Part shown: positions 1,552 through 41,010 of the stretch, piece by piece
Numbering within the stretch: the stretch's first letter is position 1
How the letters are laid out: each line of letters opens with the position of its first letter
NCBI GenBank assembly: GCA_963805945.1
Contig: CAWDVP010000006.1
Coordinates: 288,001-352,000 of the forward strand
Source: Vulcanimicrobiota bacterium
Lineage (GTDB): Bacteria > Vulcanimicrobiota > Vulcanimicrobiia > Eremiobacterales > Eremiobacteraceae
Reading direction: 5' to 3'
DNA: 64,000 bases
The notes under the pieces: model-generated
Seen by the model: the letters and a program-made list of their open reading frames with translations, nothing else
Databases searched by the model: none
Told to the model about the DNA's origin: nothing
Made by a program: the position numbers and the translations under genes

Positions 1552-2730
1552 CTAGTCAAGCATTCGCACCACGAAGCACTTGAGATACGCCGTTTCGGGG
1601 GCCGCCATCGAGATCGGGTGATCGGGCGGCTGGCCGCGATCTTCCAGCAGTTGCAGTTCACGTCGCGCGTCGCGCGCCGCATCGCGCAACATATCGGCGA
1701 ACAGCTCGCGCGTCACCGGTCGAGAGCACGAGCAGGTGACGAGAACGCCGCCCGGCTCCAGCATCGTGAGGGCGCGCAGATTGATCTCCTTGTAGCCGCG
1801 CAACGCGCCCGGCAGCGCGCTCTTGCCGCGCGCGAACGAGGGCGGATCGAGGATGATCAGTTCGAACTTCTGCTCGCGATCGCTCGCGCTACGCAGCCAA
1901 TCGAAGCAGTTCGCGACGATCACCGGCGCGTCGGGGAACCCGTTGAGCGCGAGGTTGCGCCGCGCGAGCTCGCACGCCTCGTCCGAGATGTCGACGCTCG
2001 TGACGGCGCTCGCGCCCGCAAGCGCGGCGTGGACGCTGAAGCCGCCTGTGTAGGCGAAGCAATTGAGCACGCGCCGGCCTCGCGCGTACGCCGCTGCCGC
2101 TTCGCGGTTGAGGCGCTGATCCAAGAACAGGCCGGTCTTCTGCCCGTGCGACACATCGACCAGCAAGCGCGCCGCGCCCTCACGTATTTCGATGAGCTCC
2201 GGCGGCGCCGCACCAGCGACCACGCCGGTGTGCGGTTCGAGACCTTCCAGTTTGCGTTCCGGCATGTCGCTGCGCTCGTAGATGCCGAGCGGTGCGACGA
2301 GCGTTTCGAGCGCACTCACGATATGCTGCTTGGCGCGTTCGACGCCGAGCGTCGAGAGCTGCATCGCCAGCCAGCCGGCGTACGAATCGACGATGAGCCC
2401 CGGCAGGCCGTCACCCTCGGCGTTGATGAGGCGCCGTCCGGCAGCCACGTCGAGCGGCCCACGGGCGCCGACGGCGGCGGCGATGCGCCGCTGCCAGAAG
2501 GCAGCGTCGATCGGCTCGTCGTGCCAGGAGATGACGCGCAGGCGTATCTTCGATGCGCGGTTGAGGTAGGCGATCGCGAAGAAGCGCCCGCGGTGATCGA
2601 GGACGCGGACAGCTTCGCCATCGACGGCGCCTGCGGGCAGCGAGTCGACCTCGCCCTCGAACAGCCACGGGTGGCGCAAGCGTTCCGGGCGCCGCGCTTT
2701 GATGCGGGCGGCCTCGGGTGCCGCGATCAA
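1552..2730 (-). CDS. RlmI-like SAM-dependent rRNA m5C methyltransferase with PUA domain
   Basis: HPWLF PUA start, [28 protein letters not shown] motifs. Confidence 0.88.
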
Positions 2731-5342
2731 ACCTTCTCCTTCGAAGCCTTCTTGCGCATGACGACCTCGCCGTTCTTGCTGTCCACCACCACCGTATCGC
2801 CCGGCACGAAGTCGCCGCTGAGCGCTTTGAGCGCGAGCGGATCGACGACTTCCTTCTGCAGCGCGCGCTTGAGCGGCCGTGCGCCGTACACGGGATCGTA
2901 GCCGCGGCCGGCGATGAACTCCTTGGCGGCGTCGGTGAGCTCCAGGCTGATGCCGCGCTCCGCCAGGCGCTTGCGCAGCGTGCCGAGCTGGATCTCGACG
3001 ATCTGCTTGATGTCCGCCAGCGAAAGATTGCGGAAGATGATGATCTCGTCGATGCGGTTGAGGAACTCGGGCCGGAAGTGCGCGGTGACGACCTCCATGA
3101 CCTCCGTGCGCATCTTCTCCGGATTGCCGGCATTCTCGGCGATCGCCGCCGAGCCCAGATTGCTCGTCATGATGATGACGGTGTTCTTGAAGTCGACGAG
3201 GCGGCCTTGACCGTCGGTGAGCCGGCCGTCGTCGAGGATCTGTAGCAGCACGTTAAAGACGTCGGGGTGGGCCTTCTCGATCTCGTCGAACAGGATCACG
3301 CAGTACGGCCGCCGCCGCACCGCCTCGGTGAGCTGGCCGCCCTCGTCATAGCCGACATAGCCGGGCGGCGCGCCGATCAGCCGCGCGACGGTGTGCTTCT
3401 CCATGTATTCCGACATGTCGATGCGGATCATCGAATGCTCATCGTCGAACAAGAACTCGGCGAGCGCGCGCGCCAGCTCCGTCTTGCCGACGCCGGTGGG
3501 ACCGAGGAACAAGAACGAGCCGAGCGGCCGGTTGGGATCTTGCAGACCCGCCCGAGCGCGCCGCACCGCTGCGGCGACCGCCTTCACCGCGTTCTCCTGG
3601 CCGACCACCCGGACGTGCAGCCGCTCCTCCATCTGAAGAAGCTTCTGCACCTCGCCCTCGACGAGCTTCTCGACCGGGATGCCGGTCCATTTGGCGACGA
3701 CCTCGGCGATGTCGTGCTCGTCCACTTCTTCTTTGAAGAGCTTGGGGCCGGCGGACGGTTTTTCAAACCGCTCCTCGATCGCCTGCGCCTTCTTCTGCAG
3801 TTCCGGCAGATCTTTGTACTTGAGCCGCGAGATCTCTTCGAGGTCGACGTTCGGATCGTAGCCCTGCTCGGCTCGCTCGATGCGCGTCTTCATCGCCTCG
3901 ATCTTCTCTTTGATGCCGCTCACCTCGCCGACGGCGTTCTTCTCCGATTCCCATAGTTTCTTGAGGCGGGTCGTCTCCGCGTCGAGCTCCGCGATCTCTT
4001 TCTCGATGTCGGTGAGCCGCTTGCGCGAGCCGGCGTCTGACTCTTTCTTGAGCGCCTCGCGCTCGATCTTGAGCATGTTGTTGCGGCGCTCGACCTCGTC
4101 GAGCTCCACAGGCCGCGAATCCATCTCCATGCGGATCTTCGACGCGGCTTCGTCGACGAGATCGATGGCCTTGTCGGGCAGGAAGCGGTCCGTGATGTAG
4201 CGCTTCGAGAGGACGGCGGCCGCCACGAGCGCTGAGTCCTTGATGCGGACGTGGTGGTGCGCCTCGTAACGCTCGCGTAGGCCGCGCAGGATCGAGATGG
4301 TGTCCTCCACCGTCGGCTCGCCCACCATGACCGGCTGGAAGCGCCGCTCGAGCGCGGCGTCCTTCTCGATGTACTTGCGGTACTCGTTGAGCGTCGTCGC
4401 TCCGATGCAGTGGAGCTCGCCGCGCGCGAGCATCGGCTTGAGCAGGTTCGAAGCGTCCATCGAGCCTTCGGCCGCGCCCGCGCCGACGACGGTGTGCAGC
4501 TCGTCGATGAACAGGATGATCTCGCCCTGGCTGCTCGTGATCTCTTTGAGCACGGCCTTGAGGCGGTCTTCGAACTCGCCGCGGTACTTCGCGCCGGCGA
4601 TGAGCGCGCCGAGGTCGAGCGAGATGATGCGCTTGTTCTTCAGACCCTCCGGCACGTCGCCGCGCACGATGCGGTGGGCCAGGCCCTCCACGATCGCCGT
4701 CTTGCCGACGCCGGGCTCGCCGATGAGCACCGGGTTGTTCTTGGTGCGCCGCGAGAGCACTTGGATGACGCGGCGGATCTCCTCGTCGCGACCGATGACC
4801 GGATCGATCTTGTTCTGCCGTGCGAGCGCGGTGAGATCGCGGCCGTAGCGCTCGAGCGCCTGGTACTTGCCCTCCGGATCTTGGTCGGTGATACGCTGGC
4901 TGCCCCGTACCGGTGCAAGGCCGGCGAGGATCTTATCGGGCGTCGCGCCGGCTTTGACCAGCAGTTCCTTGGCCTCAGATCTGCCGGGCGCGTCCGCGAT
5001 CGCGATCAGGAGGTGTTCGGTCGAGACGTACTCGTCTTTGAACTTCTCGGCCGCCTCGCCGGCTCGGCTTATGAGCGCCGTCATCTCGCGGCCGAAGCGC
5101 GGCTCTGCGCCGCCGTACACCTTGGCGCGGGCATCGAGCCTCGCGACCGCCTGCTTCTCGAGCTGGCCGACGTCTATGCCCAGCTGGCGCAGCACGATCG
5201 CCGGGGTGCCCTCAGGGTCGCTCAGCAGTGCGACGAGCAGGTGTTCGGCGTCGACCTCAGCCGCGTGGCGCTCCGCTGCGATGCGTTGCGCCTCGACGAG
5301 CGCCTCCTGCGCTTTGCGCGTGAGCTTGTCGAAGTTCGTCAT
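2727..5342 (-). CDS. clpB: ATP-dependent chaperone ClpB
   Basis: Two AAA+ modules ([16 protein letters not shown]), middle coiled-coil domain, 871 aa. Confidence 0.97.
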
Positions 5343-5507: not shown

Positions 5508-7058
5508 ATGAACGCCATGCCGCATTTCCGTACGTGCGGGCTGCGCGTTGCACCGCTTCTCATCCTCGTCTGCTGCGCTCCGTCATACGGCGCGGCCCTT
5601 CCGAGCGCGCCTCGGCAACCGGTCCCCTCGGTCTTGGCGCGCTTCGCCGGCTTCGAAGGCCGGATCACCTATGCCGGCCATCGCATCGATATCGTCTCCG
5701 CGCCGGAAGTGACCGGCACCGCCATTGTCTCGCGCAACGGCTTTGTCATCGAAGAACGCGGTCCGCGCTACGCTTTGCGCGCCGATGCGAGCGGCGTCGT
5801 CGTGCGTTCGGGCGCGACGGCTGCGCGCGCGGCGGATCCGCTCGACGCGGACGCGTTCGTCTATCCGTGGGCCATCGCGCTCGCCGCGCTCGCGAGCGGC
5901 GATCTTCGCGCCGGCGGGCATGCGGCGTGGCGCACGCCGATGGGCATGACCGTGTATACCGACGCCAGCGGCGCAGAGATCGAAGGTTTCGTCGGGCAAG
6001 CCGGCGCGCGGCTCTCCTTCACATTCGCCGGCTGGAGCGACGTCGCGGGTCTGCCGTTCCCGACGCGCGTCTTGCGCCTGCGCGACGGCGTGAGCGATGC
6101 GGCTTTTCAGATCGACCGCCTCTATGTCGCACGCGCGCCGGGGCCGGGAGACCGGCCGGTCGACGGTGCGCCGGTGGCGGCTGTGACCACCGGTCGAGTG
6201 AATTCGACCGCTCCAGCCATCATGGAAATGCGGCCGGCGCCGCCGTTTCCGTCGCGGCTCGTGCTCACATTCTTCGGCTTGATGCTGCTGGCGGTGGCGA
6301 TGGTCGCGTGGCTGCGGCGCGACGCGTTCACCTCGCGTCTGTGTGCGCGCGCGTCGCCCGACGCGCGAGGATGGCGGACGTCGTCGGCGGCTGCGTATGT
6401 CACGCCCGACGGTATCGTCCGGATCGAGGGCAACGACTACCACGTCGGACCTGAGTTCTTCGCGCGCGCGGTCGAAGTGAGCTTCTCCGCGCTCTTCTTG
6501 CGGGTGTCGGCGCCCGGCCTGTCACGTGCGGTCGTCCTGCCGCGGCGCCTGCCGCGCATCGGCACGCCGCCGCGCCGTCGCCGCGCCGCGTCGGCGGGCT
6601 TCAGCCTCGTCGAGTCGCTCGTCGCCGTGGGCTTCTTGTCCGTCGTGATCGTCGGCGCGATCTATCCGGCGCTCGTCGCGGTTGCGCACGCGGATCTCGT
6701 CGCCGGCCAAAAGCGTGCCGCGATCGCGGCCGCTGCCAACGCCCTCACGGACGAGGAGATGGCGTGCGCCTACGGCACGAGCGCGCCGACCGGCGTCACC
6801 ACCACCACGGTCGACGGCATGACGGTGACGGTCAGCGTCACAAGCTCATCCGTGGCCGGCGCGCGCGATATCCGCGTCACGGTCGCGAATGCGTCGGGCC
6901 GGACGCTCGCGGCGCTGGCCACCACCGTGGGTCCGCCGGTGCCGCCGCCCGGTTCGAGCGGCGCGGCGACGCCTCCACCTACGGCCGCGCCGACCGCGGC
7001 GCCGACGACCGCACCCGGACCTTCGGCGACCCCACCGTCTTCGTTCGGCGGCCGCTGA
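5508..7058 (+). CDS. Multidomain membrane protein with an internal type IV prepilin motif
   Basis: N-terminal signal-like segment, central TM (LVLTFFGLMLLAVAMVAWL), RRRRAASAG|FSLVESLVAVGFLSVVIVG at aa 364/365, Pro/Thr-rich tail. Confidence 0.7.
   Translation: MNAMPHFRTCGLRVAPLLILVCCAPSYGAALPSAPRQPVPSVLARFAGFEGRITYAGHRIDIVSAPEVTGTAIVSRNGFVIEERGPRYALRADASGVVVRSGATAARAADPLDADAFVYPWAIALAALASGDLRAGGHAAWRTPMGMTVYTDASGAEIEGFVGQAGARLSFTFAGWSDVAGLPFPTRVLRLRDGVSDAAFQIDRLYVARAPGPGDRPVDGAPVAAVTTGRVNSTAPAIMEMRPAPPFPSRLVLTFFGLMLLAVAMVAWLRRDAFTSRLCARASPDARGWRTSSAAAYVTPDGIVRIEGNDYHVGPEFFARAVEVSFSALFLRVSAPGLSRAVVLPRRLPRIGTPPRRRRAASAGFSLVESLVAVGFLSVVIVGAIYPALVAVAHADLVAGQKRAAIAAAANALTDEEMACAYGTSAPTGVTTTTVDGMTVTVSVTSSSVAGARDIRVTVANASGRTLAALATTVGPPVPPPGSSGAATPPPTAAPTAAPTTAPGPSATPPSSFGGR
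6191..6215 (-). repeat. REP-like palindromic element family A, in frame in CDS (GRVNSTAP)
   Basis: cggtcgagtgaattcgaccgctcca. Confidence 0.85.
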
Positions 7059-7741
7059 TGCGCCGGCGCCGAGGCATGGCCCTCATCACCGCGCTGCTCG
7101 TCGCCACGCTGGTGCTCGCGGTCCTTGCGTTCGTCGTCACCGTCGGCACGTCGCAGTTGCGGCGCGCCACCGAAGAGCTGTGGGAACTGCAGGCGCAAGC
7201 CGGCGCCGACGGAGCGGTGGGGTGGACGCGCGCGCTCATCGCGAATCGCCAGGGCGACATCGTCGCGGCGCTCGGCGACATGGCTGCGGCGAAGAGCACG
7301 TACGTGCTGACCATCGACGAGAACACGGAGGTGGATGCGTCGGTCACCTTCCATCTCGCGAACGTGGGAGCGGCGAACGATCACGTCGACGTCTTCTTGC
7401 AGCAGGACCCGTCGGTGGCCGAGACGCCGCTTCAGGTGAGCGTCACCGCGACGGTCGTCGTGGGCGGCAATGCGGTGGCGAGCCGCAGCACGACGGCACT
7501 GGTCCGCGTGTTCCGGCAGGCCGCTCCCTATTCGGAGATCACCGGCTTCATCGATAACTCGGGGCCGGTGGGTATCGATAGTCCCGGTGATCCCGCCGGT
7601 CAGGCCGGCAGCGCGACGGCGACCGAACTGCGTATCCACGTGTTCAAGACGGACGCCTCCGGCAACCCGATCGCAAACGATACGTTCGGCGATCAGACCT
7701 GGTCGGACGGCAACTCCGCGCCCTCCGGCGCGCTTCCATGA
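7058..7741 (+). CDS. PilX/GspK-like minor pilin
   Basis: MRRRRG|MALITALLVATLVLAV class III signal lacking Glu5; ATG overlaps the upstream TGA. Confidence 0.7.
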   Translation: MRRRRGMALITALLVATLVLAVLAFVVTVGTSQLRRATEELWELQAQAGADGAVGWTRALIANRQGDIVAALGDMAAAKSTYVLTIDENTEVDASVTFHLANVGAANDHVDVFLQQDPSVAETPLQVSVTATVVVGGNAVASRSTTALVRVFRQAAPYSEITGFIDNSGPVGIDSPGDPAGQAGSATATELRIHVFKTDASGNPIANDTFGDQTWSDGNSAPSGALP

Positions 7742-8277
7742 GATCCCGTATGGAGCGGTCGAATCTATTCGACCGCGGGATGACGCTGATCGAGTTGCTC
7801 ATCGTCGTCGCCATCCTCGCGATCGCGTGCGCGCTCATCTTCCTCTCGCCCGTGCGCGCGTATCTGCACGCTCGCGCCGCAGCCGACGCAGCGCAGACTT
7901 TTGCGCAGGACGTGGCGCTGCTGGAACGCGTGGCGCAGAACGGCGGCGCCAACGACGGCGCCACGCTGCAGATCGTCTCGACCAGTCCGCTCGTCTACGA
8001 ATGCTACTACGGGCGCCCGAACGCGATCGATCCGAACTCCGCGCTCGGCGCGTTGATCGTCCGCCGTAGCTACGATGACGTGACGCTGTCCGGCGGACCC
8101 ATCGACGCCACCACGCCGTTGCTGTTCGCGAGCAACGGAAGCGCGCAGTACGTCGCGGCCGGAGTCTGGGCGGACCAGCATCAGACGATCGAGATGACGC
8201 TCGCGCCGTCCGGAGACGAAGAACGCTCTTCCGCCATCGACCTGGACCTTTTCACCGGCGGGGTCTCACTGCGGTAG
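7738..8277 (+). CDS. Prepilin-type N-terminal cleavage/methylation protein (FimT/GspH-like)
   Basis: G|MTLIELLIVVAILAI motif. Confidence 0.85.
   Translation: MRSRMERSNLFDRGMTLIELLIVVAILAIACALIFLSPVRAYLHARAAADAAQTFAQDVALLERVAQNGGANDGATLQIVSTSPLVYECYYGRPNAIDPNSALGALIVRRSYDDVTLSGGPIDATTPLLFASNGSAQYVAAGVWADQHQTIEMTLAPSGDEERSSAIDLDLFTGGVSLR
7751..7776 (+). repeat. REP-like palindromic element family A, forms the prepilin leader (MERSNLFDR)
   Basis: tggagcggtcgaatctattcgaccgc. Confidence 0.85.
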
Positions 8278-8289
8278 CGCGACGACCTT

Positions 8290-11200
8290 CTAGCGGAAAT
8301 CACGCGTGGTCAACCCGTCCGTGAGGCGATCCAGGTCGAGCTTCCAGAAACGGCGAGCCAGCACGTTGATGTGGCCCTCATCCTTCTGGATGACGCCCTC
8401 CACGATGACCGCCGGCTCGTCGCGCGCGATCGGACGGTACTTCTGATAGATGTCCGGCCGGATGATCACGTTGACGAGCCCGGTCTCGTCCTCGAGCGTG
8501 GCGAAGACGAAACCTTTGGCGGTGCCCGGACGCTGACGCGTCGTGACCAGGCCTGCGACTTTCATGACCAGGCGATTGGGAAGACGCTCGAGGTCGGCGG
8601 CGCTGTAGATGCGCCGCGCGGTGAGCTGCTCGCGATAGAACTGCATCGCGTGGTAGGTGGGCGACAGGCCTAAGCCCCACAGGTCCGCACCGGCTTCTTC
8701 CACTTGATGCATGCGCGGCAGCGCCACCGGCGGTTCGTCGAGCGTCATGCCCCGTTCGAGCGCGCCGACGCGGGGCAAGATCGCGAGCCGCTGCACCTCC
8801 CACAGCGCCTGCCGGCGCGACAGCCCGAAGCACGCGAACGCGTCCACCGCGGCCAGCGACTCCAAGATCTCTTTGGAGAGCTGTGTCCTCAAGACGAAGT
8901 CGCGCAGATCCATGTACGGCCCCTTCTCTCGCTCAGCATTCAACATCGCTTTGTGCTTTTCGCCGATACCGCGCACTTGACTGAGCCCGATACGAATGGC
9001 ATAGCCGCGCGTCTCGAGCGGAAGCACGCGGCTCTGCGAAGCCGGGGCCTCTGAGGAGGCGAGAGCCGACGAAGGAGCCGCGGAGTCAAAATCTCCCTTA
9101 GCTCCGCGAGCGTGCCCCGGCGGCAGAGCCGCGTGCGCGCTCGCGACGGGCAGCCTCTCCGACGTGCATTCGTAGCGCGAGACGTTGACGTCCGGCGCCA
9201 GCACGGTGACCTTATGCCGGCGCGCATCCGCGATCAAAGATTCAGGCGAATAGAACCCCATCGGCTGCGCGTTGAGCAGCGACGCGTAGAACTCCGGCGC
9301 GTAACGCAGCTTGAGATATCCGGAGATGTAGACGATGAGCGCGAACGACGCGGCGTGCGATTCGGGGAAACCGAAGTCGGCGAACGCGCTGAGCATCTGG
9401 AAGAGCCGCTCGGCGACCTCGCGTGTGATGCCGTTGCGCGCCATGCCTTCGAGCAAGCGCGCGTGCAGGCGCTCCATCTTCTCGCGCGAGCGCTTGTGCC
9501 CCATCGCGCGGCGCAGCTCGTCCGCCTGGCCGGCCGTGAAGCCCGCGGTCTCGACGGCCATGCGCATGCCTTGTTCCTGGAAGAGCGGCACGCCCAAGGT
9601 GCGCTCGAGCACCGGCTTGAGCTTCGGATGCGGATAGGTCACCGGCTCGAGGCCTTTGCGCCGGCGGATGTAGGGATGCACCATATCGCCCTGGATGGGG
9701 CCGGGCCGGATGATCGCCACCTCGACGACGATGTCGTAGAAGCAGCGCGGCCGCAGGCGCGGCAGCGTCGCCATCTGCGCGCGCGACTCCACTTGGAACA
9801 GCCCGACCGTGTCCGCGGCGCACAGCATGTCGTAGACGCCCGGATCGTCGCACGCGCGCAGGTCCGCCAGATCGAGCGTCTCTCCGCGCACGCGCGCGAT
9901 CTCCTTGATCGCGAGCTCGATGGCGTCGAGCATCCCGAGCCCGAGCAGGTCGATCTTGATGAGCCCGAGCGCGGCGCAATCATCCTTATCCCAGCACAGG
10001 ATGGTGCGGTCGGGCATAGCCGCTTTCTCCAGCGGCGCCACTTCGATGAGCGGCGAGCGCGTGATCACCATGCCGCCGACGTGCTGGCTCAGGTGGCGCG
10101 GGAAGCTGTCGATGCGGCGGCACAGCTCGTAGAGCCGCTCCGCGGTGTCGCCGGCCAGATCCACGTGCAGCGCCGGCGGCAGCGCGGCGACCGCGCCCGC
10201 CACCTCAGCCGCCGACAGCGCCGGCGGCTCGCCGTGCGCGTCCAAGGACGGCAGGTGGGATGCGTTCCCCGAGCTTCGCTCGGGCACCACAGGCTCAGGC
10301 ACCACAGACCCGCGCGCGACGTCCGAGAGAGCGCGCGCCGCGCTGTAGCCGTCGAGCGACTTCGCGAGCGCGTCCACCTGATCGAGCGAGAGACCGATCG
10401 CCTTGCCGATATCGCGCACCGCGGAGCGCGCGCGGTAGCTGATGACCTCCGCGACCATCGCGCTATGCTCGCGGCCATAACGTTGATAGACGTATTGGAT
10501 GATCTGCTCGCGCTTCTCGCCCGAGGGGCAATCGAGGTCGATGTCGGGCAGTTCGGCGCGCTCTTCCGACAAGAAGCGCTCGAAGAGCAGCTTCAAGCCG
10601 ACCGGGTCCACGCTCGTGATGTTGAGCGCGTAGCAGACGGCCGAGTTGGCGGCCGACCCGCGGCCTTGCACGAAGATACCGCGCTCCATCGCGAAACGCA
10701 CGATATCCCAGACGATGAGGAAGTAACCGGCCAGATCTAGCTTCTCGATCACCGCGAGCTCATGCGCGATTTGCTTGCTCACCTCGGGCGTCACCGGACG
10801 GTAGCGCCGCCGCACGCCTTCTTGCACGAGCGCGTAGAGATACGAAAAGGCGGTCTCACCGCTCGGCAGCGGAAAATCGGGAAACTCGTTGCGTAGGCGC
10901 TCCAAGCGGAACGAACAGCGCTGCGCGATGGCGGCGCTGGCCGCGATCGCGCGCGGATGCTCGGGGAAGAGCCGCAGCATCGCCTGCGCCGAGCGCAAGG
11001 CGTATTCGCCGTTGGGCCGCAGCCGCGCGCCCGCGTCGTCAAGCGTGGTCTTGAGCCGGATGCAGGCGAGCACGTCGGCGAGCTCGCGGTGCTCCGGCAG
11101 CGCGTAGTGCACGCCGCCGGTGGCGACCAGTCCGAGCTCGAGGTTCTGCGCCACCGCCGCGAGCGCGCGGATGCGCGGGCCGTCGTCGGGCAGCAGATGC

Positions 11201-11691
11201 CGCTGCAGCTCGATCCAGAAATTGCCCCAGCCGAAGATGTCGCGGAACGCGGCGGCGCGTTCGCATGCGCCGCGGACGTCATCGCGCGCGAGCGCCTGCG
11301 GGACCGCGCCATGCTCGCAGCCGGACAGCGCGATGAGCCCCTTGGCGTAGCGCGAGAGGTTGTAGTAGGACGTGCGCGGCGCGCCGCGTTCGTTGTCGAG
11401 ATGGGCGCGGCTGAGCAGCCGCGAGAGATTGCCGTACCCCTCCTTCGTCTCGGCGAGCACGACGAGATGGCTGTCGTCCTCGAGCGTCAGCTCGGCGCCG
11501 ATGACGGCGGGCAGCTGCGCTTCACGCGCGGCTTGGGCGAAGCGCACGGCGCCGTAGAGGCCGTCGCGATCGGTGATCGCGCAGCCGGCCAGGCCGAGCT
11601 GCGCTGCGCGCTCGACCAGCTCTTCGGGGTGCGAGCCGCCCTCGAGCAGGGTGAAATTGGAATGACAGTGGAGCTCGGCGTACGGCAGCAT
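8290..11691 (-). CDS. dnaE2: Error-prone DNA polymerase III alpha, DnaE2/ImuC
   Basis: PHP HCHSNF, GRGSAANS, PDIDLD, C-terminal TRDFR motif; downstream of imuAB. Confidence 0.95.
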   Translation of the reverse strand: MLPYAELHCHSNFTLLEGGSHPEELVERAAQLGLAGCAITDRDGLYGAVRFAQAAREAQLPAVIGAELTLEDDSHLVVLAETKEGYGNLSRLLSRAHLDNERGAPRTSYYNLSRYAKGLIALSGCEHGAVPQALARDDVRGACERAAAFRDIFGWGNFWIELQRHLLPDDGPRIRALAAVAQNLELGLVATGGVHYALPEHRELADVLACIRLKTTLDDAGARLRPNGEYALRSAQAMLRLFPEHPRAIAASAAIAQRCSFRLERLRNEFPDFPLPSGETAFSYLYALVQEGVRRRYRPVTPEVSKQIAHELAVIEKLDLAGYFLIVWDIVRFAMERGIFVQGRGSAANSAVCYALNITSVDPVGLKLLFERFLSEERAELPDIDLDCPSGEKREQIIQYVYQRYGREHSAMVAEVISYRARSAVRDIGKAIGLSLDQVDALAKSLDGYSAARALSDVARGSVVPEPVVPERSSGNASHLPSLDAHGEPPALSAAEVAGAVAALPPALHVDLAGDTAERLYELCRRIDSFPRHLSQHVGGMVITRSPLIEVAPLEKAAMPDRTILCWDKDDCAALGLIKIDLLGLGMLDAIELAIKEIARVRGETLDLADLRACDDPGVYDMLCAADTVGLFQVESRAQMATLPRLRPRCFYDIVVEVAIIRPGPIQGDMVHPYIRRRKGLEPVTYPHPKLKPVLERTLGVPLFQEQGMRMAVETAGFTAGQADELRRAMGHKRSREKMERLHARLLEGMARNGITREVAERLFQMLSAFADFGFPESHAASFALIVYISGYLKLRYAPEFYASLLNAQPMGFYSPESLIADARRHKVTVLAPDVNVSRYECTSERLPVASAHAALPPGHARGAKGDFDSAAPSSALASSEAPASQSRVLPLETRGYAIRIGLSQVRGIGEKHKAMLNAEREKGPYMDLRDFVLRTQLSKEILESLAAVDAFACFGLSRRQALWEVQRLAILPRVGALERGMTLDEPPVALPRMHQVEEAGADLWGLGLSPTYHAMQFYREQLTARRIYSAADLERLPNRLVMKVAGLVTTRQRPGTAKGFVFATLEDETGLVNVIIRPDIYQKYRPIARDEPAVIVEGVIQKDEGHINVLARRFWKLDLDRLTDGLTTRDFR
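10268..10305 (-). repeat. REP-like palindromic element family C plus partial duplicate, in frame in dnaE2 (VVPEPVVPERSSG)
   Basis: Minus strand gtggtgcccgagcgaagctcggg preceded by gtggtgcctgagcct; near-identical to 44592-44614. Confidence 0.75.
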
Positions 11692-11692
11692 G

Positions 11693-13246
11693 TCAATCGA
11701 ACACGCCTTGCACGTACCAGCCGCCGTCGCGGCGGTCGCAGAACACGAGCAGCAGCGCGCCGGTGCTATCGACGAGCTGGTAGTAGTCGCGCTCGATCGG
11801 ACGCTCCCACCAGCTCTCGCTCAAGCGGAACGGGCCGGCGCGTGCGGCTGCAAGCGGCGGCGCGCTGATCGGCGCGGGCGGATCGACCAGGCGCAGCGCC
11901 GGCGCCCACGCGCCGTGCGAGGTCAACGTCGTCATACCTGACACATATGGAGCGGTCGAGTTCACTCGACCGTTTAGGGAGGTCGAATGTATTCGACCGT
12001 TGAGAGTGCTCCGGCCGTTCGGCTTTCGCGCCCGCGCGCCGTCGCGCGGCGAATCTAGGATGTCGCGCGGCGATTCGATCGGCGTCGCCCGCTGCATGCG
12101 CTCGGGCAGACGGGAACGCGACGGCGTAGATGCCAGCAACACCACCTCCTCACGCTGCAGCGCGGCCTGCAGCCGCGCGAGCGTCGCCGCCAACGCGGCA
12201 CGGCGCGATGCCGCCGTGCCGTCGAACAGCGAGAGCTGCGGCAGCGCCTGGCCGCACGGCGTGACGCGTGCCGTCACCGCCGCCACCGATTCCAGCATCT
12301 CGCGCGACTCGAGCGCGATGCGCGCGAGATGGAACATCGTCTCCGCATTGGCGCTCGGCTCGGCGAGCAGCACCGGCACGGTCGTCGACTCGGTGGAGAA
12401 CTCCAGCTCGATGTCGAGCCGATCGCACGTCTGCGCGCCGCCCGCCAGCCGCGCGGTGACGGCCGCGATGCAGCCGCGCGCGGCGACCAGCACCGGCTCG
12501 AGCCGGTCCACGGCGCCGTCGAATGCGAAGCGTTCCTGGAAGACGGCGGTCTCGTGCCGGGGCTGCAGACGCTCGTCGTCGTCGCCGCGGGCGAGCCGCT
12601 GATAGCGGCGCGCTCGCTCGCCGAAACGCAGGGCGAGCGGCCCGGTCGGCAACGCGGCGAGCTGCCCGAGCGTGCGCAAGCCGAGCAGATCGAGGCGATC
12701 GGCATCGCCAGGCGCGAGCGCAAGCAATGCGATGGGCAGCGGCGCGAGAAACGCCGTGCTGCCGCCCGGCGGCACGATGCTCACCCCGGCGCCCGCGACA
12801 AGCGCTGCGCACCGCGCGGTGAACTTATCGTCGGCGATGCCGGCGGCGCACGAAAAGCCGAGCGCGCTGACGAGCGAGAGCGCGGCGCCGATCGCGCCGG
12901 CTTCGCCCGACGGCAGCGAGGCCGCATCGAAGTAGCAGACGCCCGGCGCCGCGCCCTCCACGAGCGGACCGCACGTCTCGAGCGCCTCGAGCAGCTCGCG
13001 CGTGGCAGCAAGCTCCGCGGCGACATCGCGTGCGATGACCACCAGGCCCGGGCAGGCGGCACGCGCCTGCTTGGGCGTCATGCCGGCCACGACGCTGCCG
13101 GCGTTGCGGCTCGCACACGCAATCTCGCGCCGCGACTCGCCTTGCGCGATGGCGATCGGCCGGCCGCGTAAGGACGGCTTCGCGCGCACGCAGACCTCGA
13201 CCGAGAATTGCGGCAGGACCAAGCATGCGATGCGGCTGGCGATCAA
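11693..13246 (-). CDS. imuB: ImuB, catalytically inactive Y-family polymerase homolog
   Basis: IACLVLPQF, GMTPKQARAACPGL, LGLRTLGQLA, C-terminal GPFRLSESWW...RDYY...WYVQGVFD; TTG start overlapping the imuA stop is inferred. Confidence 0.88.
   Translation of the reverse strand: MIASRIACLVLPQFSVEVCVRAKPSLRGRPIAIAQGESRREIACASRNAGSVVAGMTPKQARAACPGLVVIARDVAAELAATRELLEALETCGPLVEGAAPGVCYFDAASLPSGEAGAIGAALSLVSALGFSCAAGIADDKFTARCAALVAGAGVSIVPPGGSTAFLAPLPIALLALAPGDADRLDLLGLRTLGQLAALPTGPLALRFGERARRYQRLARGDDDERLQPRHETAVFQERFAFDGAVDRLEPVLVAARGCIAAVTARLAGGAQTCDRLDIELEFSTESTTVPVLLAEPSANAETMFHLARIALESREMLESVAAVTARVTPCGQALPQLSLFDGTAASRRAALAATLARLQAALQREEVVLLASTPSRSRLPERMQRATPIESPRDILDSPRDGARARKPNGRSTLNGRIHSTSLNGRVNSTAPYVSGMTTLTSHGAWAPALRLVDPPAPISAPPLAAARAGPFRLSESWWERPIERDYYQLVDSTGALLLVFCDRRDGGWYVQGVFD
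11948..11999. repeat. Two tandem family A palindromes in frame in imuB (NGRIHSTSLNGRVNSTAP)
   Basis: tggagcggtcgagttcactcgaccg (11948-11972) and ggtcgaatgtattcgaccg (11981-11999). Confidence 0.85.
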
Positions 13247-13995
13247 TGCAGCGCTCTTGGCGGTCGAATAAATTCGACCGCTCCATGGACCGCGTCGACC
13301 GCTCCATAGGTGTCGTGGGTCAGCGCCACGCGGACGCTGCGGCCCGGTGCGATGGCGCGCGATTTGGCCACGTCGACCGACGTGACGCACCCGGCCAGGC
13401 GCCCGGCGCCATCGCCACCCTCTTCCCACAGCGGCGCGAGGCCGTGCGCGTGCAACCGCAGCGATGCGAACGACGCCACCGCCTGCACGTCGCCGTTCGA
13501 GACGATCACAAGCGCCGTGCCCGTCTTCTCCGCTTGCGCCGCGAGCCGCGCGCAGTGATGGGTCTGCAACGCAGCGGGCGAGCCGCTGCAATCGAGCACG
13601 ACGACCGCGCATGCGCCGCCGCGCACCAACGCATCCGCGGCGCGGCGCGCTGCGGCCGCAGCGCGCGGACGCACCACCACGAGCCGGCGCAGATCGACGC
13701 CCGCGGCTTCCGCCACCGGCGCGAAGAACGTCCTTTGAGGATCGATATACGCGCCGATGCCGCCGCCCTGCGTGCAGGCCGCGAGGGCGGCCAGCGCGAG
13801 CGTCGTCTTGCCCGAGGAAGGGGCGCCGAAGATCTCGGTCAGGCGGCCGATGGGTATGCCGCTCGGCCCTAAGAGATCGTCCAAAACGGCGATGCCGCTC
13901 GGCGTGCCGGCCCGCGCAGGAGCGATGGCGTGGGGTACGGCTCCCTGCCAACGGCGCTCGAGCGCAGCCCGTAACTGCACGATAGAGGACGACAT
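13243..13995 (-). CDS. imuA: ImuA, RecA-like protein
   Basis: RecA-like fold with EIFGAPSSGKTT; first gene of the imuA-imuB-dnaE2 cassette. Confidence 0.85.
   Translation of the reverse strand: MSSSIVQLRAALERRWQGAVPHAIAPARAGTPSGIAVLDDLLGPSGIPIGRLTEIFGAPSSGKTTLALAALAACTQGGGIGAYIDPQRTFFAPVAEAAGVDLRRLVVVRPRAAAAARRAADALVRGGACAVVVLDCSGSPAALQTHHCARLAAQAEKTGTALVIVSNGDVQAVASFASLRLHAHGLAPLWEEGGDGAGRLAGCVTSVDVAKSRAIAPGRSVRVALTHDTYGAVDAVHGAVEFIRPPRALH
13260..13308 (-). repeat. Family A palindrome plus a half copy at the imuA C-terminus (YGAVDAVHGAVEFIRPP)
   Basis: gcggtcgaataaattcgaccgctccat (13260-13286) and gtcgaccgctccata (13295-13308). Confidence 0.85.
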
Positions 13996-39687: not shown

Positions 39688-41010
39688 TCAGCTGCCCAGC
39701 GCGGGGAAGATCACCTGAAGCGTCGACACCACGGTGAGCAGGCCGACGATGATCACCGTCGCCCACGCGATGATATTGAAGAGCAGCGAGTTCGTGTAGT
39801 TCCCCATCAGGGTGCGGTTGTTGATGAGGATCAGCATGAGCACGAGCACCAACGGCAGCAACGCGCCATTGAACACCTGCGAGTAGAAGATGATCCCTAG
39901 CAGCGGCGCGTGCGGGATGAGCACGACGCTCGCGCCGATGACGATGAGCGCCGCATAGAGCCCATAGAAGAACGGCGCTTCCCGGAACTTCTTGCTGACG
40001 CCGGATTCGAAGCCGAACGCCTCGCAGACGTAGTACGCGGTGGAGAGCGGCAGGATCGAGGCGGTGAAGATCGCCGCGTTGAGCAACCCGATCGCGAACA
40101 GGATCGACGCGTACTTGCTCGCCAGCGGCGCGAGCGCGGCGGCGAGCTTCGCGACGTCGTCGACCACGATCTGACCCTGCGGCGCGGCGTGCACGTTGTG
40201 CACGTAGATGGTCGCCGCGCTCGCGACCATGATGAAGAACGCGATGAAGTCGGTGAAGAGCGCGCCCGTCACCACGTCGATGCGCGAATACGTCAGCTCA
40301 GACGCCTTGACGCCTTTCTCGACGATCGCCGATTGGATGTAGAACTGCATCCACGGCGAGATGGTAGTGCCGATGATCGCGATCACCATGAGCAGGTACG
40401 CCTTGCTCGGCGTGAAGTGCGGCCACACGAACTGCGTGAGCACCTCGTGCCAGTCCGGCCGCACAAGGATGCAGCTCACCACATACGTGAGGTAGACGAA
40501 GCAGAAGAAAAAGAACACCTTCTCGACGGCCGCGTAATTGCCGCGCGTGACGACGACGAAGACGAAGATGGCCACCACCGGCACGAGCAGATACTTGGTC
40601 ATCCATGGAAGATAGGCGTGGAAGACGCCGGCTGCCGACGCCGCGCCGGCGAACTCCGAGGTGATCGTGCCGATGTTGCCGAGCACGAAGAGCAGCAGCA
40701 CCCAAAAAGTGAGCCTCACGCCGAAGTTCTCGCGGATGAGATCGGCGAGGCCTTTGCCGGTCACCGCGCCCATGCGCGCGCACATCTCCTGGATGACGAG
40801 CAGCGCCACCGTCACCGGGATGAGGATCCATAGCTGCGTGTAGCCGAACTGGGCGCCGGAGAGCGAGTACGTCGTGATACCGCCGACATCGTTGTCCGCG
40901 TTCGCGGTGATGATGCCGGGTCCGACCACCGACAGGAACATGAGAATCGAGCGCCAGACGCTTGGTCTGGGCGCTGCGAGTCTATCGCCGGCCTTTTGCG
41001 CTATTGCCAT
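39688..41010 (-). CDS. Nramp-related divalent cation (likely Mg2+) transporter, NrmT-like
   Basis: TM1 ANADNDVGG instead of DPGN, GTTISPWMQFY; M-box upstream. Confidence 0.88.
   Translation of the reverse strand: MAIAQKAGDRLAAPRPSVWRSILMFLSVVGPGIITANADNDVGGITTYSLSGAQFGYTQLWILIPVTVALLVIQEMCARMGAVTGKGLADLIRENFGVRLTFWVLLLFVLGNIGTITSEFAGAASAAGVFHAYLPWMTKYLLVPVVAIFVFVVVTRGNYAAVEKVFFFFCFVYLTYVVSCILVRPDWHEVLTQFVWPHFTPSKAYLLMVIAIIGTTISPWMQFYIQSAIVEKGVKASELTYSRIDVVTGALFTDFIAFFIMVASAATIYVHNVHAAPQGQIVVDDVAKLAAALAPLASKYASILFAIGLLNAAIFTASILPLSTAYYVCEAFGFESGVSKKFREAPFFYGLYAALIVIGASVVLIPHAPLLGIIFYSQVFNGALLPLVLVLMLILINNRTLMGNYTNSLLFNIIAWATVIIVGLLTVVSTLQVIFPALGS

Follow-up and report, generated by a model that had tools for sequence, protein, structure and literature searches.

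A family-wide fusion of a membrane protein and a PilV-type minor pilin with a candidate internal prepilin peptidase site

Introduction

Can a prepilin peptidase release a pilin from the middle of a longer membrane protein? The leaders described for this enzyme are short: the one that PilD takes off P. aeruginosa PilA has six residues (PMC3584216), and the one removed from FlaB2 has 12 (PMC4985597). The question is raised by a gene at 5508-7058 on the + strand of the window, that is, of the whole 64,000-nucleotide stretch of DNA analysed here. In this gene, an intact class III site lies 364 residues into the chain, behind an exported domain and a transmembrane (TM) helix. From sequence comparison and structural models, we consider it likely that PilD cuts this precursor internally, between G364 and F365, giving a PilV-type pilin and a membrane protein made of a LolA-fold domain, a TM helix and a barrel.

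Results

A single frame with three folded parts

The 516-residue frame runs without a break from the membrane-protein part into the pilin part. The initial annotation had described one uninterrupted frame with an internal RRRRAASAG/FSLVE (the slash marks the predicted cut), its Gly at 6597-6599 and a hydrophobic helix after it, and all of this was confirmed. The true start is probably ATG 5517, giving 513 residues rather than 516: the database call for this protein (P0002) has 513, sequences in the genus alignment usually begin with MPH, and this ATG is preceded by an AAGG at a distance of 9 nt. Residue numbers follow the 516-residue frame, and all features of the gene are on the + strand.

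The chain begins with a probable Sec signal peptide (5517-5597, residues ~4-30), assigned on the basis of its hydropathy and of AxA-like ends; a hydrophobic N-terminal window is present in 21 of 23 orthologues. It is followed by an exported LolA/LolB/RseB-fold domain (5613-6137, residues 36-210), a poorly conserved disordered linker (6144-6242, residues 213-245, 13% identity), and a TM helix of predicted N-out/C-in orientation that ends in a conserved WxRRD (6252-6311, residues ~249-268). Next come a basic, predicted cytoplasmic domain (6312-6551, residues 269-348), made of a helix and a small beta-barrel weakly resembling transposase domain II-beta, and a basic disordered linker (6552-6599), the putative internal class III leader, which ends at G364 (-1). 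The PilV/GspI-type minor pilin occupies 6600-7058, with F at +1, E at +5, helix alpha1 at 365-421, a four-strand head at 422-480 and a Pro/Ala/Thr tail.

An AlphaFold model of the whole protein (27 sequences, mean pLDDT 72.7, pTM 0.42) consists of three folded parts with disordered linkers, 213-245 and 351-365, between them. The exported domain of about 220 residues proposed initially stands as an exported part, but only about 36-210 is folded, and the disordered linker follows. Similarly, the domain of about 95 residues proposed behind the TM helix is right in length (96 residues between helix and site), but it is in fact divided into a helix, a small beta-barrel at ~290-346 and, at 351-365, a basic linker that is disordered (pLDDT below 50).

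The first linker carries one copy of a palindromic repeat, at 6192-6209. Further copies in the window are at 7757, 11954, 11981, 13262, 14611, 46378 and 58485, and 168 sites were counted genome-wide against 0-1 in three shuffles. The repeat, which we take to resemble Rickettsia-type palindromic elements, is often in frame within genes, as in the fusion linker and in the FimT-like and PilW-like pilins, where it lies in the leader.

Fold assignments

Foldseek matched residues 36-210 to LolB (E 3e-5), and structural alignment with 3bk5 gave Z 11.4 (rmsd 4.2, 169 residues aligned). Feature-level matches of 0.90-0.93 were obtained to lipoprotein-sorting-like clusters; neither a Pfam nor an NCBIfam family matched this domain, and no NCBIfam family matched the fusion protein. 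The half-barrel fold is common to the LolA/LolB/RseB(MucB) superfamily, from which the fusion domain differs by its identity of at most 17%, its lack of a Pfam match and its predicted tethering to the inner membrane.

Folded alone, the middle domain reached a pLDDT of 82.4. Its top 11 Foldseek rows were IstA or TnsB (E 0.09-0.31), VIA-align ranked IstA (Z 5.9) and TnsB (Z 5.2) first, and Pfam Mu-transpos_C_2 matched the barrel at E 2e-4, with 21.6 bits against a cut-off of 27; 7 of 26 members match that family at E up to 0.1. Each of these signals is weak. On these profile and model grounds, we regard the domain as a probable distant barrel of the kind found in the transposases IstA, TnsB and MuA, with which it shares a basic surface. 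Unlike those proteins, the fusion is membrane-anchored, and neither a DDE catalytic nor a DNA-binding HTH domain was found in it, the rest of the chain being assigned to other folds.

In structural alignment, residues 395-476 resemble pseudopilins of the GspI type, namely XcpV (Z 9.6, rmsd 1.6, 78 aligned), EpsI (Z 9.4, rmsd 2.0) and GspI (Z 8.9). This head fold (Z 8.9-9.6, rmsd 1.6-2.1) and the G/F-x-x-x-E motif are shared with the PilV/GspI proteins (XcpV, EpsI) of type IVa pili and type II secretion systems, whose leaders are a few residues long, whereas that of the fusion is a 360-residue exported, membrane-spanning, multidomain protein.

The pilin operon and its surroundings

As in PilV/GspI systems, PilX/GspK-like and FimT/GspH-like genes stand in operon with the fusion, and the translational coupling noted initially holds: the fusion stop overlaps the next start in TGATG at 7056-7060, and 7058-7741 in turn overlaps 7738-8277 (both +). 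The first of these genes encodes a PilX/GspK-like minor pilin with an ordinary short leader (T2SS_GspK at E 3e-9, below cut-off) and was found downstream of the fusion in 23 of 23 loci. The second, present in 21 of 23, encodes a FimT/GspH-like minor pilin, also with an ordinary short leader, and has profile matches. Unlike in PilV/GspI operons, no PilW-like gene is adjacent.

A PilW-like minor pilin gene stands alone on contig C1 of the same genome (G000, ~167,985-169,075; L123 7985-9076). In a genome from outside the family (L025), a PilV-like gene is directly followed by a similar PilW-like gene. On contig C6 of G000, a second minor-pilin cluster (364,500-368,600; L124) holds two near-duplicate PilV/PilW-like pairs; in some of these genes the frame seems to shift behind the first domain. 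An ImuA/ImuB/DnaE2-like mutagenesis cassette at 8290-13995 (-) of the window converges with the pilin operon. On the other side, clpB (2727-5342, -) is divergently upstream of the fusion in 17 of 23 loci. A functional link to clpB was considered and dropped, because 6 of 23 loci have no clpB within the 1.5-kb flank or contig.

The class III site

The G/FSLVE motif is more than a chance occurrence, since a GspI/XcpV-fold domain directly follows it and 72 distinct fused sequences (79 rows with duplicates included) conserve it. Position -1 is always either G (69 sequences) or A (3); position +1 is F in 44, L in 25, M in 2 and V in 1; position +5 is E in 70 and D in 2. A at -1 occurs together with D at +5 in two loci of genus g8 (L010 and L014), one of these two genomes being unpublished. 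At least three K or R are present among the 12 residues before the site in 49 of 52 sequences, and a long hydrophobic alpha1 comes after it. The site is kept in sequences whose overall identity is about 35%. Identity is 23-27% in the linker that leads up to the site, compared with 51% in the barrel region and 54% in alpha1. In 5 of the 72 sequences, the barrel is just 7-13 residues away from the site.

The N_methyl motif of the fusion scores below the Pfam cut-off (14.3-16.2 bits against 21.2), and TIGR02532 gave no match over cut-off. At residue 364, with no conserved start nearby, the site also lacks the short N-terminal leader of type IV pilins. For the other ten N_methyl matches in the genome, a start codon is at most about 30 residues away from the motif.

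Membrane topology

All 23 orthologues have a TM segment near residue 251 and the pilin helix. K and R are commoner after the TM segment than before it in 22 of them and equal in one, and the loop from TM segment to site has 91-104 residues and a net charge of +7 to +12. LolA-fold proteins are periplasmic. From this and the positive-inside bias we infer, with good support, the order out, TM, in, TM, out, which would put the G/F bond at the cytoplasmic face. The out-TM-in-TM arrangement first proposed from the letters of the window fits the LolA fold, the charge bias in 22 of 23 orthologues and the AlphaFold model. PilD's two aspartates are thought to be active near the interface of cytoplasm and inner leaflet (PMC3584216).

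Recurrence of the fusion

The search covered 32 genomes, including the one under study, of a family which we infer, from source names attached to homologues, to be Candidatus Eremiobacteraceae, soil bacteria of the phylum Vulcanimicrobiota. An intact fusion was found in 29 of them, from 10 genera (23 in one search and 6 added later); the gene thus recurs in relatives, as the initial annotation had proposed to check. The stop or frameshift between two genes that would speak against a fusion was seen in none of the 29 genomes with the whole gene, and no stop between the two parts was found in any family genome. In the remaining three, contig ends interrupt the fusion (G258 and G016, the former still having TM segment to pilin in one frame) or no match was found (G019, 79% complete). 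Stops inside six family matches were considered as signs of split genes and rejected, all domains being in one open frame. Three genomes, G010, G013 and G016, are unpublished; two of the 29 fusions, some tree rows and one A-1/D+5 case come from them, and no conclusion rests on them.

Against 1.84 billion representative sequences, the barrel profile gave 32 strong matches, of which 30 run on into the pilin and two are a truncated paralogue described below. Six weak matches in this library, multi-stretch matches in long proteins, were discarded as noise. The barrel profile had no match in PDB sequences or the Atlas. In 232 genomes of the phylum that do not belong to the family, no match to the barrel profile or to the LolA-fold profile was found among the best 14-21 candidates per genome. 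The pilin profile matched weakly in 45 of the 232, and at the loci listed (10 of 12) the upstream open frame was at most 139 residues long. A search for split forms among shorter proteins (best 8,000 candidates) returned three matches, none of them a split gene. In a search of DNA reads for the genome under study, the best run contained 0.12 of the words, with no piece across the junction.

A truncated paralogue that ends at the site

In four of the six other genomes of genus g1, a second gene elsewhere encodes a low-complexity stretch, a TM segment and the barrel, with neither the LolA-fold domain nor the pilin. Eight copies were collected, from these four genomes, two protein clusters and two metagenome contigs (loci L028, L029, L030, L119, L126 and L127; proteins P0058 and P0060, the former with no Pfam family). 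The complete copies have an N-terminal hydrophobic segment; the copy of G004 is cut by a contig end.

All eight copies terminate at the position that corresponds to -1 of the fusion, with G in five, S in two and N in one. Six of these ends were verified by DNA stop codons and two by the protein record only. From R346 to the end, the six measured paralogues have 17-19 residues, equal to R346 to -1 in the g1 fusions. No pilin motif was found within 600 nt downstream in the three paralogues checked. The first +1-frame stop (TGA) is at the boundary in 5 of 7 g1 fusion genes, where a stop is mutationally easy. An upstream frameshift as origin of the paralogue end was nevertheless rejected, because all eight tails fit the in-frame fusion tails far better than those read in the +1 frame; the lesion thus struck the site itself.

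Since the paralogues group with the g1 fusions (support 100/99 in one tree, 99.7 in another), and g1 is nested inside the family in an RpoB tree, as sister to g6 (100), the paralogue probably derives from the fusion. An origin older than the g1/g6 split was not rejected, at a p-AU of 0.051 with about 120 columns and a long branch. The eight copies count as one event, and by a rough estimate a stop would land on that codon, among about 16 linker codons, with a chance of 1 in 10. The tail length retained in the paralogue suggests that the working C-terminus of the upstream protein is G364. This end at -1 is the best indirect evidence for a cut by PilD.

Candidate internal starts

No conserved start codon was found between the TM segment and the site in 23 genes. 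Start codons are present at column 324 in 15 of 23, at 331 in 13 and at 343 in 9. The GTG at V324 was rejected as a conserved start, 15/23 being matched by the codon-context rate of 62%. The GTG at 6504 (column 333), which the initial annotation had put forward, is kept in just 5 of 23 genes and is preceded by no SD-like motif in its own genome; the same absence of an SD-like motif holds for all three candidate starts there. In L020 there is no start codon within 61 codons of the site. At column 331, Leu is encoded by TTG in 10 of 11 cases against a codon-context rate of 43.5%, but 10 of 23 genes have no start codon at this column. Some in-frame ATG, GTG or TTG occurs at columns 338-358 in 19 of 23 genes, and a 3-4-nt SD-like motif precedes a start at 338-344 in 8 of 23. 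Synonymous identity before the site is not raised (0.49 and 0.36, against 0.43-0.49 elsewhere). As there is no intervening stop, translation from the upstream start always yields the full-length chain; an internal start would therefore remove the need for a cut, and not its substrate.

PilD and pilus genes

The genome encodes PilD (contig C6, ~40,010-40,790), over both Pfam cut-offs and beside major pilin genes, as well as secretion ATPases, PilC, a secretin and ComEC. All components looked for in a type IVa pilus system (PilD, assembly ATPase, PilC platform, secretin and major pilin) are thus present. The PilD N-domain is over cut-off in 30 of 32 family genomes, including 18 of 18 good-quality ones. 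The cultured member of the phylum makes type IV pili (PMC9758169). At 38,281-39,615 on contig C6 of G000, three tandem major-pilin genes precede pilD. Two of them appear to switch frame mid-gene, which may reflect an assembly error or inactive copies.

Discussion

How could a pilin leave such a precursor? With an internal cut, Sec would export the LolA-fold domain, and the TM helix at 249-268 would stop transfer, so that the barrel and the basic linker would remain in the cytoplasm. Helix alpha1 of the pilin would re-enter the membrane like an ordinary prepilin anchor, and PilD would cut between G364 and F365 at the cytoplasmic face and methylate the new N-terminus. One product would be a PilV/GspI-type minor pilin of about 150 residues, joining the co-transcribed PilX-like and FimT-like pilins in the pilus initiation complex. 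The other would be a membrane protein of about 335 residues, with the LolA fold outside, the barrel inside and a free basic C-terminus. The upstream protein would thus double as the pilin leader, fixing a 1:1 supply. The location of the site in a predicted disordered stretch, the conserved -1 and +5 residues amid a variable linker, and PilD in 30 of 32 genomes count for this internal cut. The short spacing between barrel and site in 5 of 72 sequences could possibly block PilD sterically. In the literature searched, which included few subscription journals, we found no case of PilD accepting a leader that carries both a folded domain and a tether to the membrane.

Conservation of the site is equally expected if the pilin were mainly translated from an in-frame start in the barrel or linker and matured as an ordinary prepilin, the full-length chain being cut incidentally or not at all. 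Such an internal start would account for the -1 and +5 residues without new enzymology, and the TTG enrichment at Leu331, the starts at 338-358 in 19 of 23 genes and the SD-like motifs in 8 of 23 speak for it. We nonetheless find it unlikely: no single start is conserved, the best being at the codon-context rate, L020 has none within 61 codons, the three candidates of the genome under study are without SD-like motif, and synonymous conservation shows no excess. It also leaves unexplained why no genome has split the two genes and why the paralogue ends at -1. Alternatively, the pilin might stay uncut, as a two-TM hairpin whose PilV fold remains held by the inner membrane, serving there as scaffold, primer or sensor, and does not become part of a filament. 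The short leaders described for prepilin peptidases would be in keeping with this, as would the short barrel-to-site spacing in a few homologues, A-1/D+5 in one genus, and the other PilV-like genes of the genome (C6, 365-368 kb). We judge it improbable, because G or A at -1 in 72 of 72 sequences and the upstream basic residues, kept at about 35% overall identity, would have no obvious use, and the paralogue is the upstream part persisting alone with exactly the C-terminus of a cut.

Two-step processing, with a different protease first cutting in the basic linker or taking off the barrel and PilD left to remove a short leader of the ordinary kind, would avoid the steric problem and suits a disordered, basic linker. 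No conserved second site was seen in the linker, however, and the paralogue end at -1 fits a single cut better, which leaves this route very improbable. An artefact of assembly or sequencing, or a one-off stop loss, is refuted by recurrence, as the same fusion recurs in a further 28 genomes (10 genera), and 30 of the 32 best protein clusters contain it too; we give this reading practically no weight.

If the internal cut by PilD is accepted as the likely reading, what would the upstream product do? The AAA+ ATPase IstB of IS21 takes up the IstA barrel between its domains and depends on it for stimulation, and TnsB engages TnsC by the same barrel domain (PMC11208146; PMC10122671). By analogy with these barrels, we tentatively suggest, with some doubt, an envelope sensor or chaperone whose barrel would dock on a cytoplasmic ATPase as IstA does on IstB; DNA binding by the barrel is our second guess. 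A more speculative, and rather doubtful, extension is that PilD acts as a polyprotein-processing, activating protease, freeing both the pilus-priming pilin and the C-terminus of a membrane sensor composed of a LolA fold and a domesticated II-beta barrel. The barrel might then bind DNA or dock on a cytoplasmic ATPase, either the pilus motor or ClpB from the adjacent gene, which would link pilus initiation to the state of the envelope, and the truncated paralogue might be the pre-cut version.

With usual class III processing by PilD (TFPP, family A24), the fusion has in common the site consensus, the predicted cytoplasmic-face position and the presence of the enzyme. It differs in that the site is internal and that both predicted products look functional. 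Bradyrhizobium FbcH (cytochrome b-c1) is a bacterial polyprotein split by signal peptidase: one gene with an internal signal gives two membrane proteins. FbcH is cut on the outer face, at a site of the signal peptidase I type, and not by prepilin peptidase. A pilin fused behind a membrane protein with an internal class III site was not found in the literature searched, with the same gaps in coverage as above, and the parts seen of a 2026 survey of archaeal type IV filaments contain no such case (PMC13705601). As far as that literature extends, the pilin is of a known kind, and the route through an internal site is apparently undescribed.

A cut by PilD at this site would mean that class III signals are not confined to the N-terminus. 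Prepilin peptidase could then be an internal endoprotease, bacteria could encode pilins as polyproteins, and pilin predictors that read only the first residues would miss such genes. In the fusion, a membrane protein may also have acquired its barrel from a transposase. As a family-wide protein of 516 residues with a natural, seemingly pre-cut paralogue, it offers an easy substrate for testing which leader lengths and what folding PilD tolerates.
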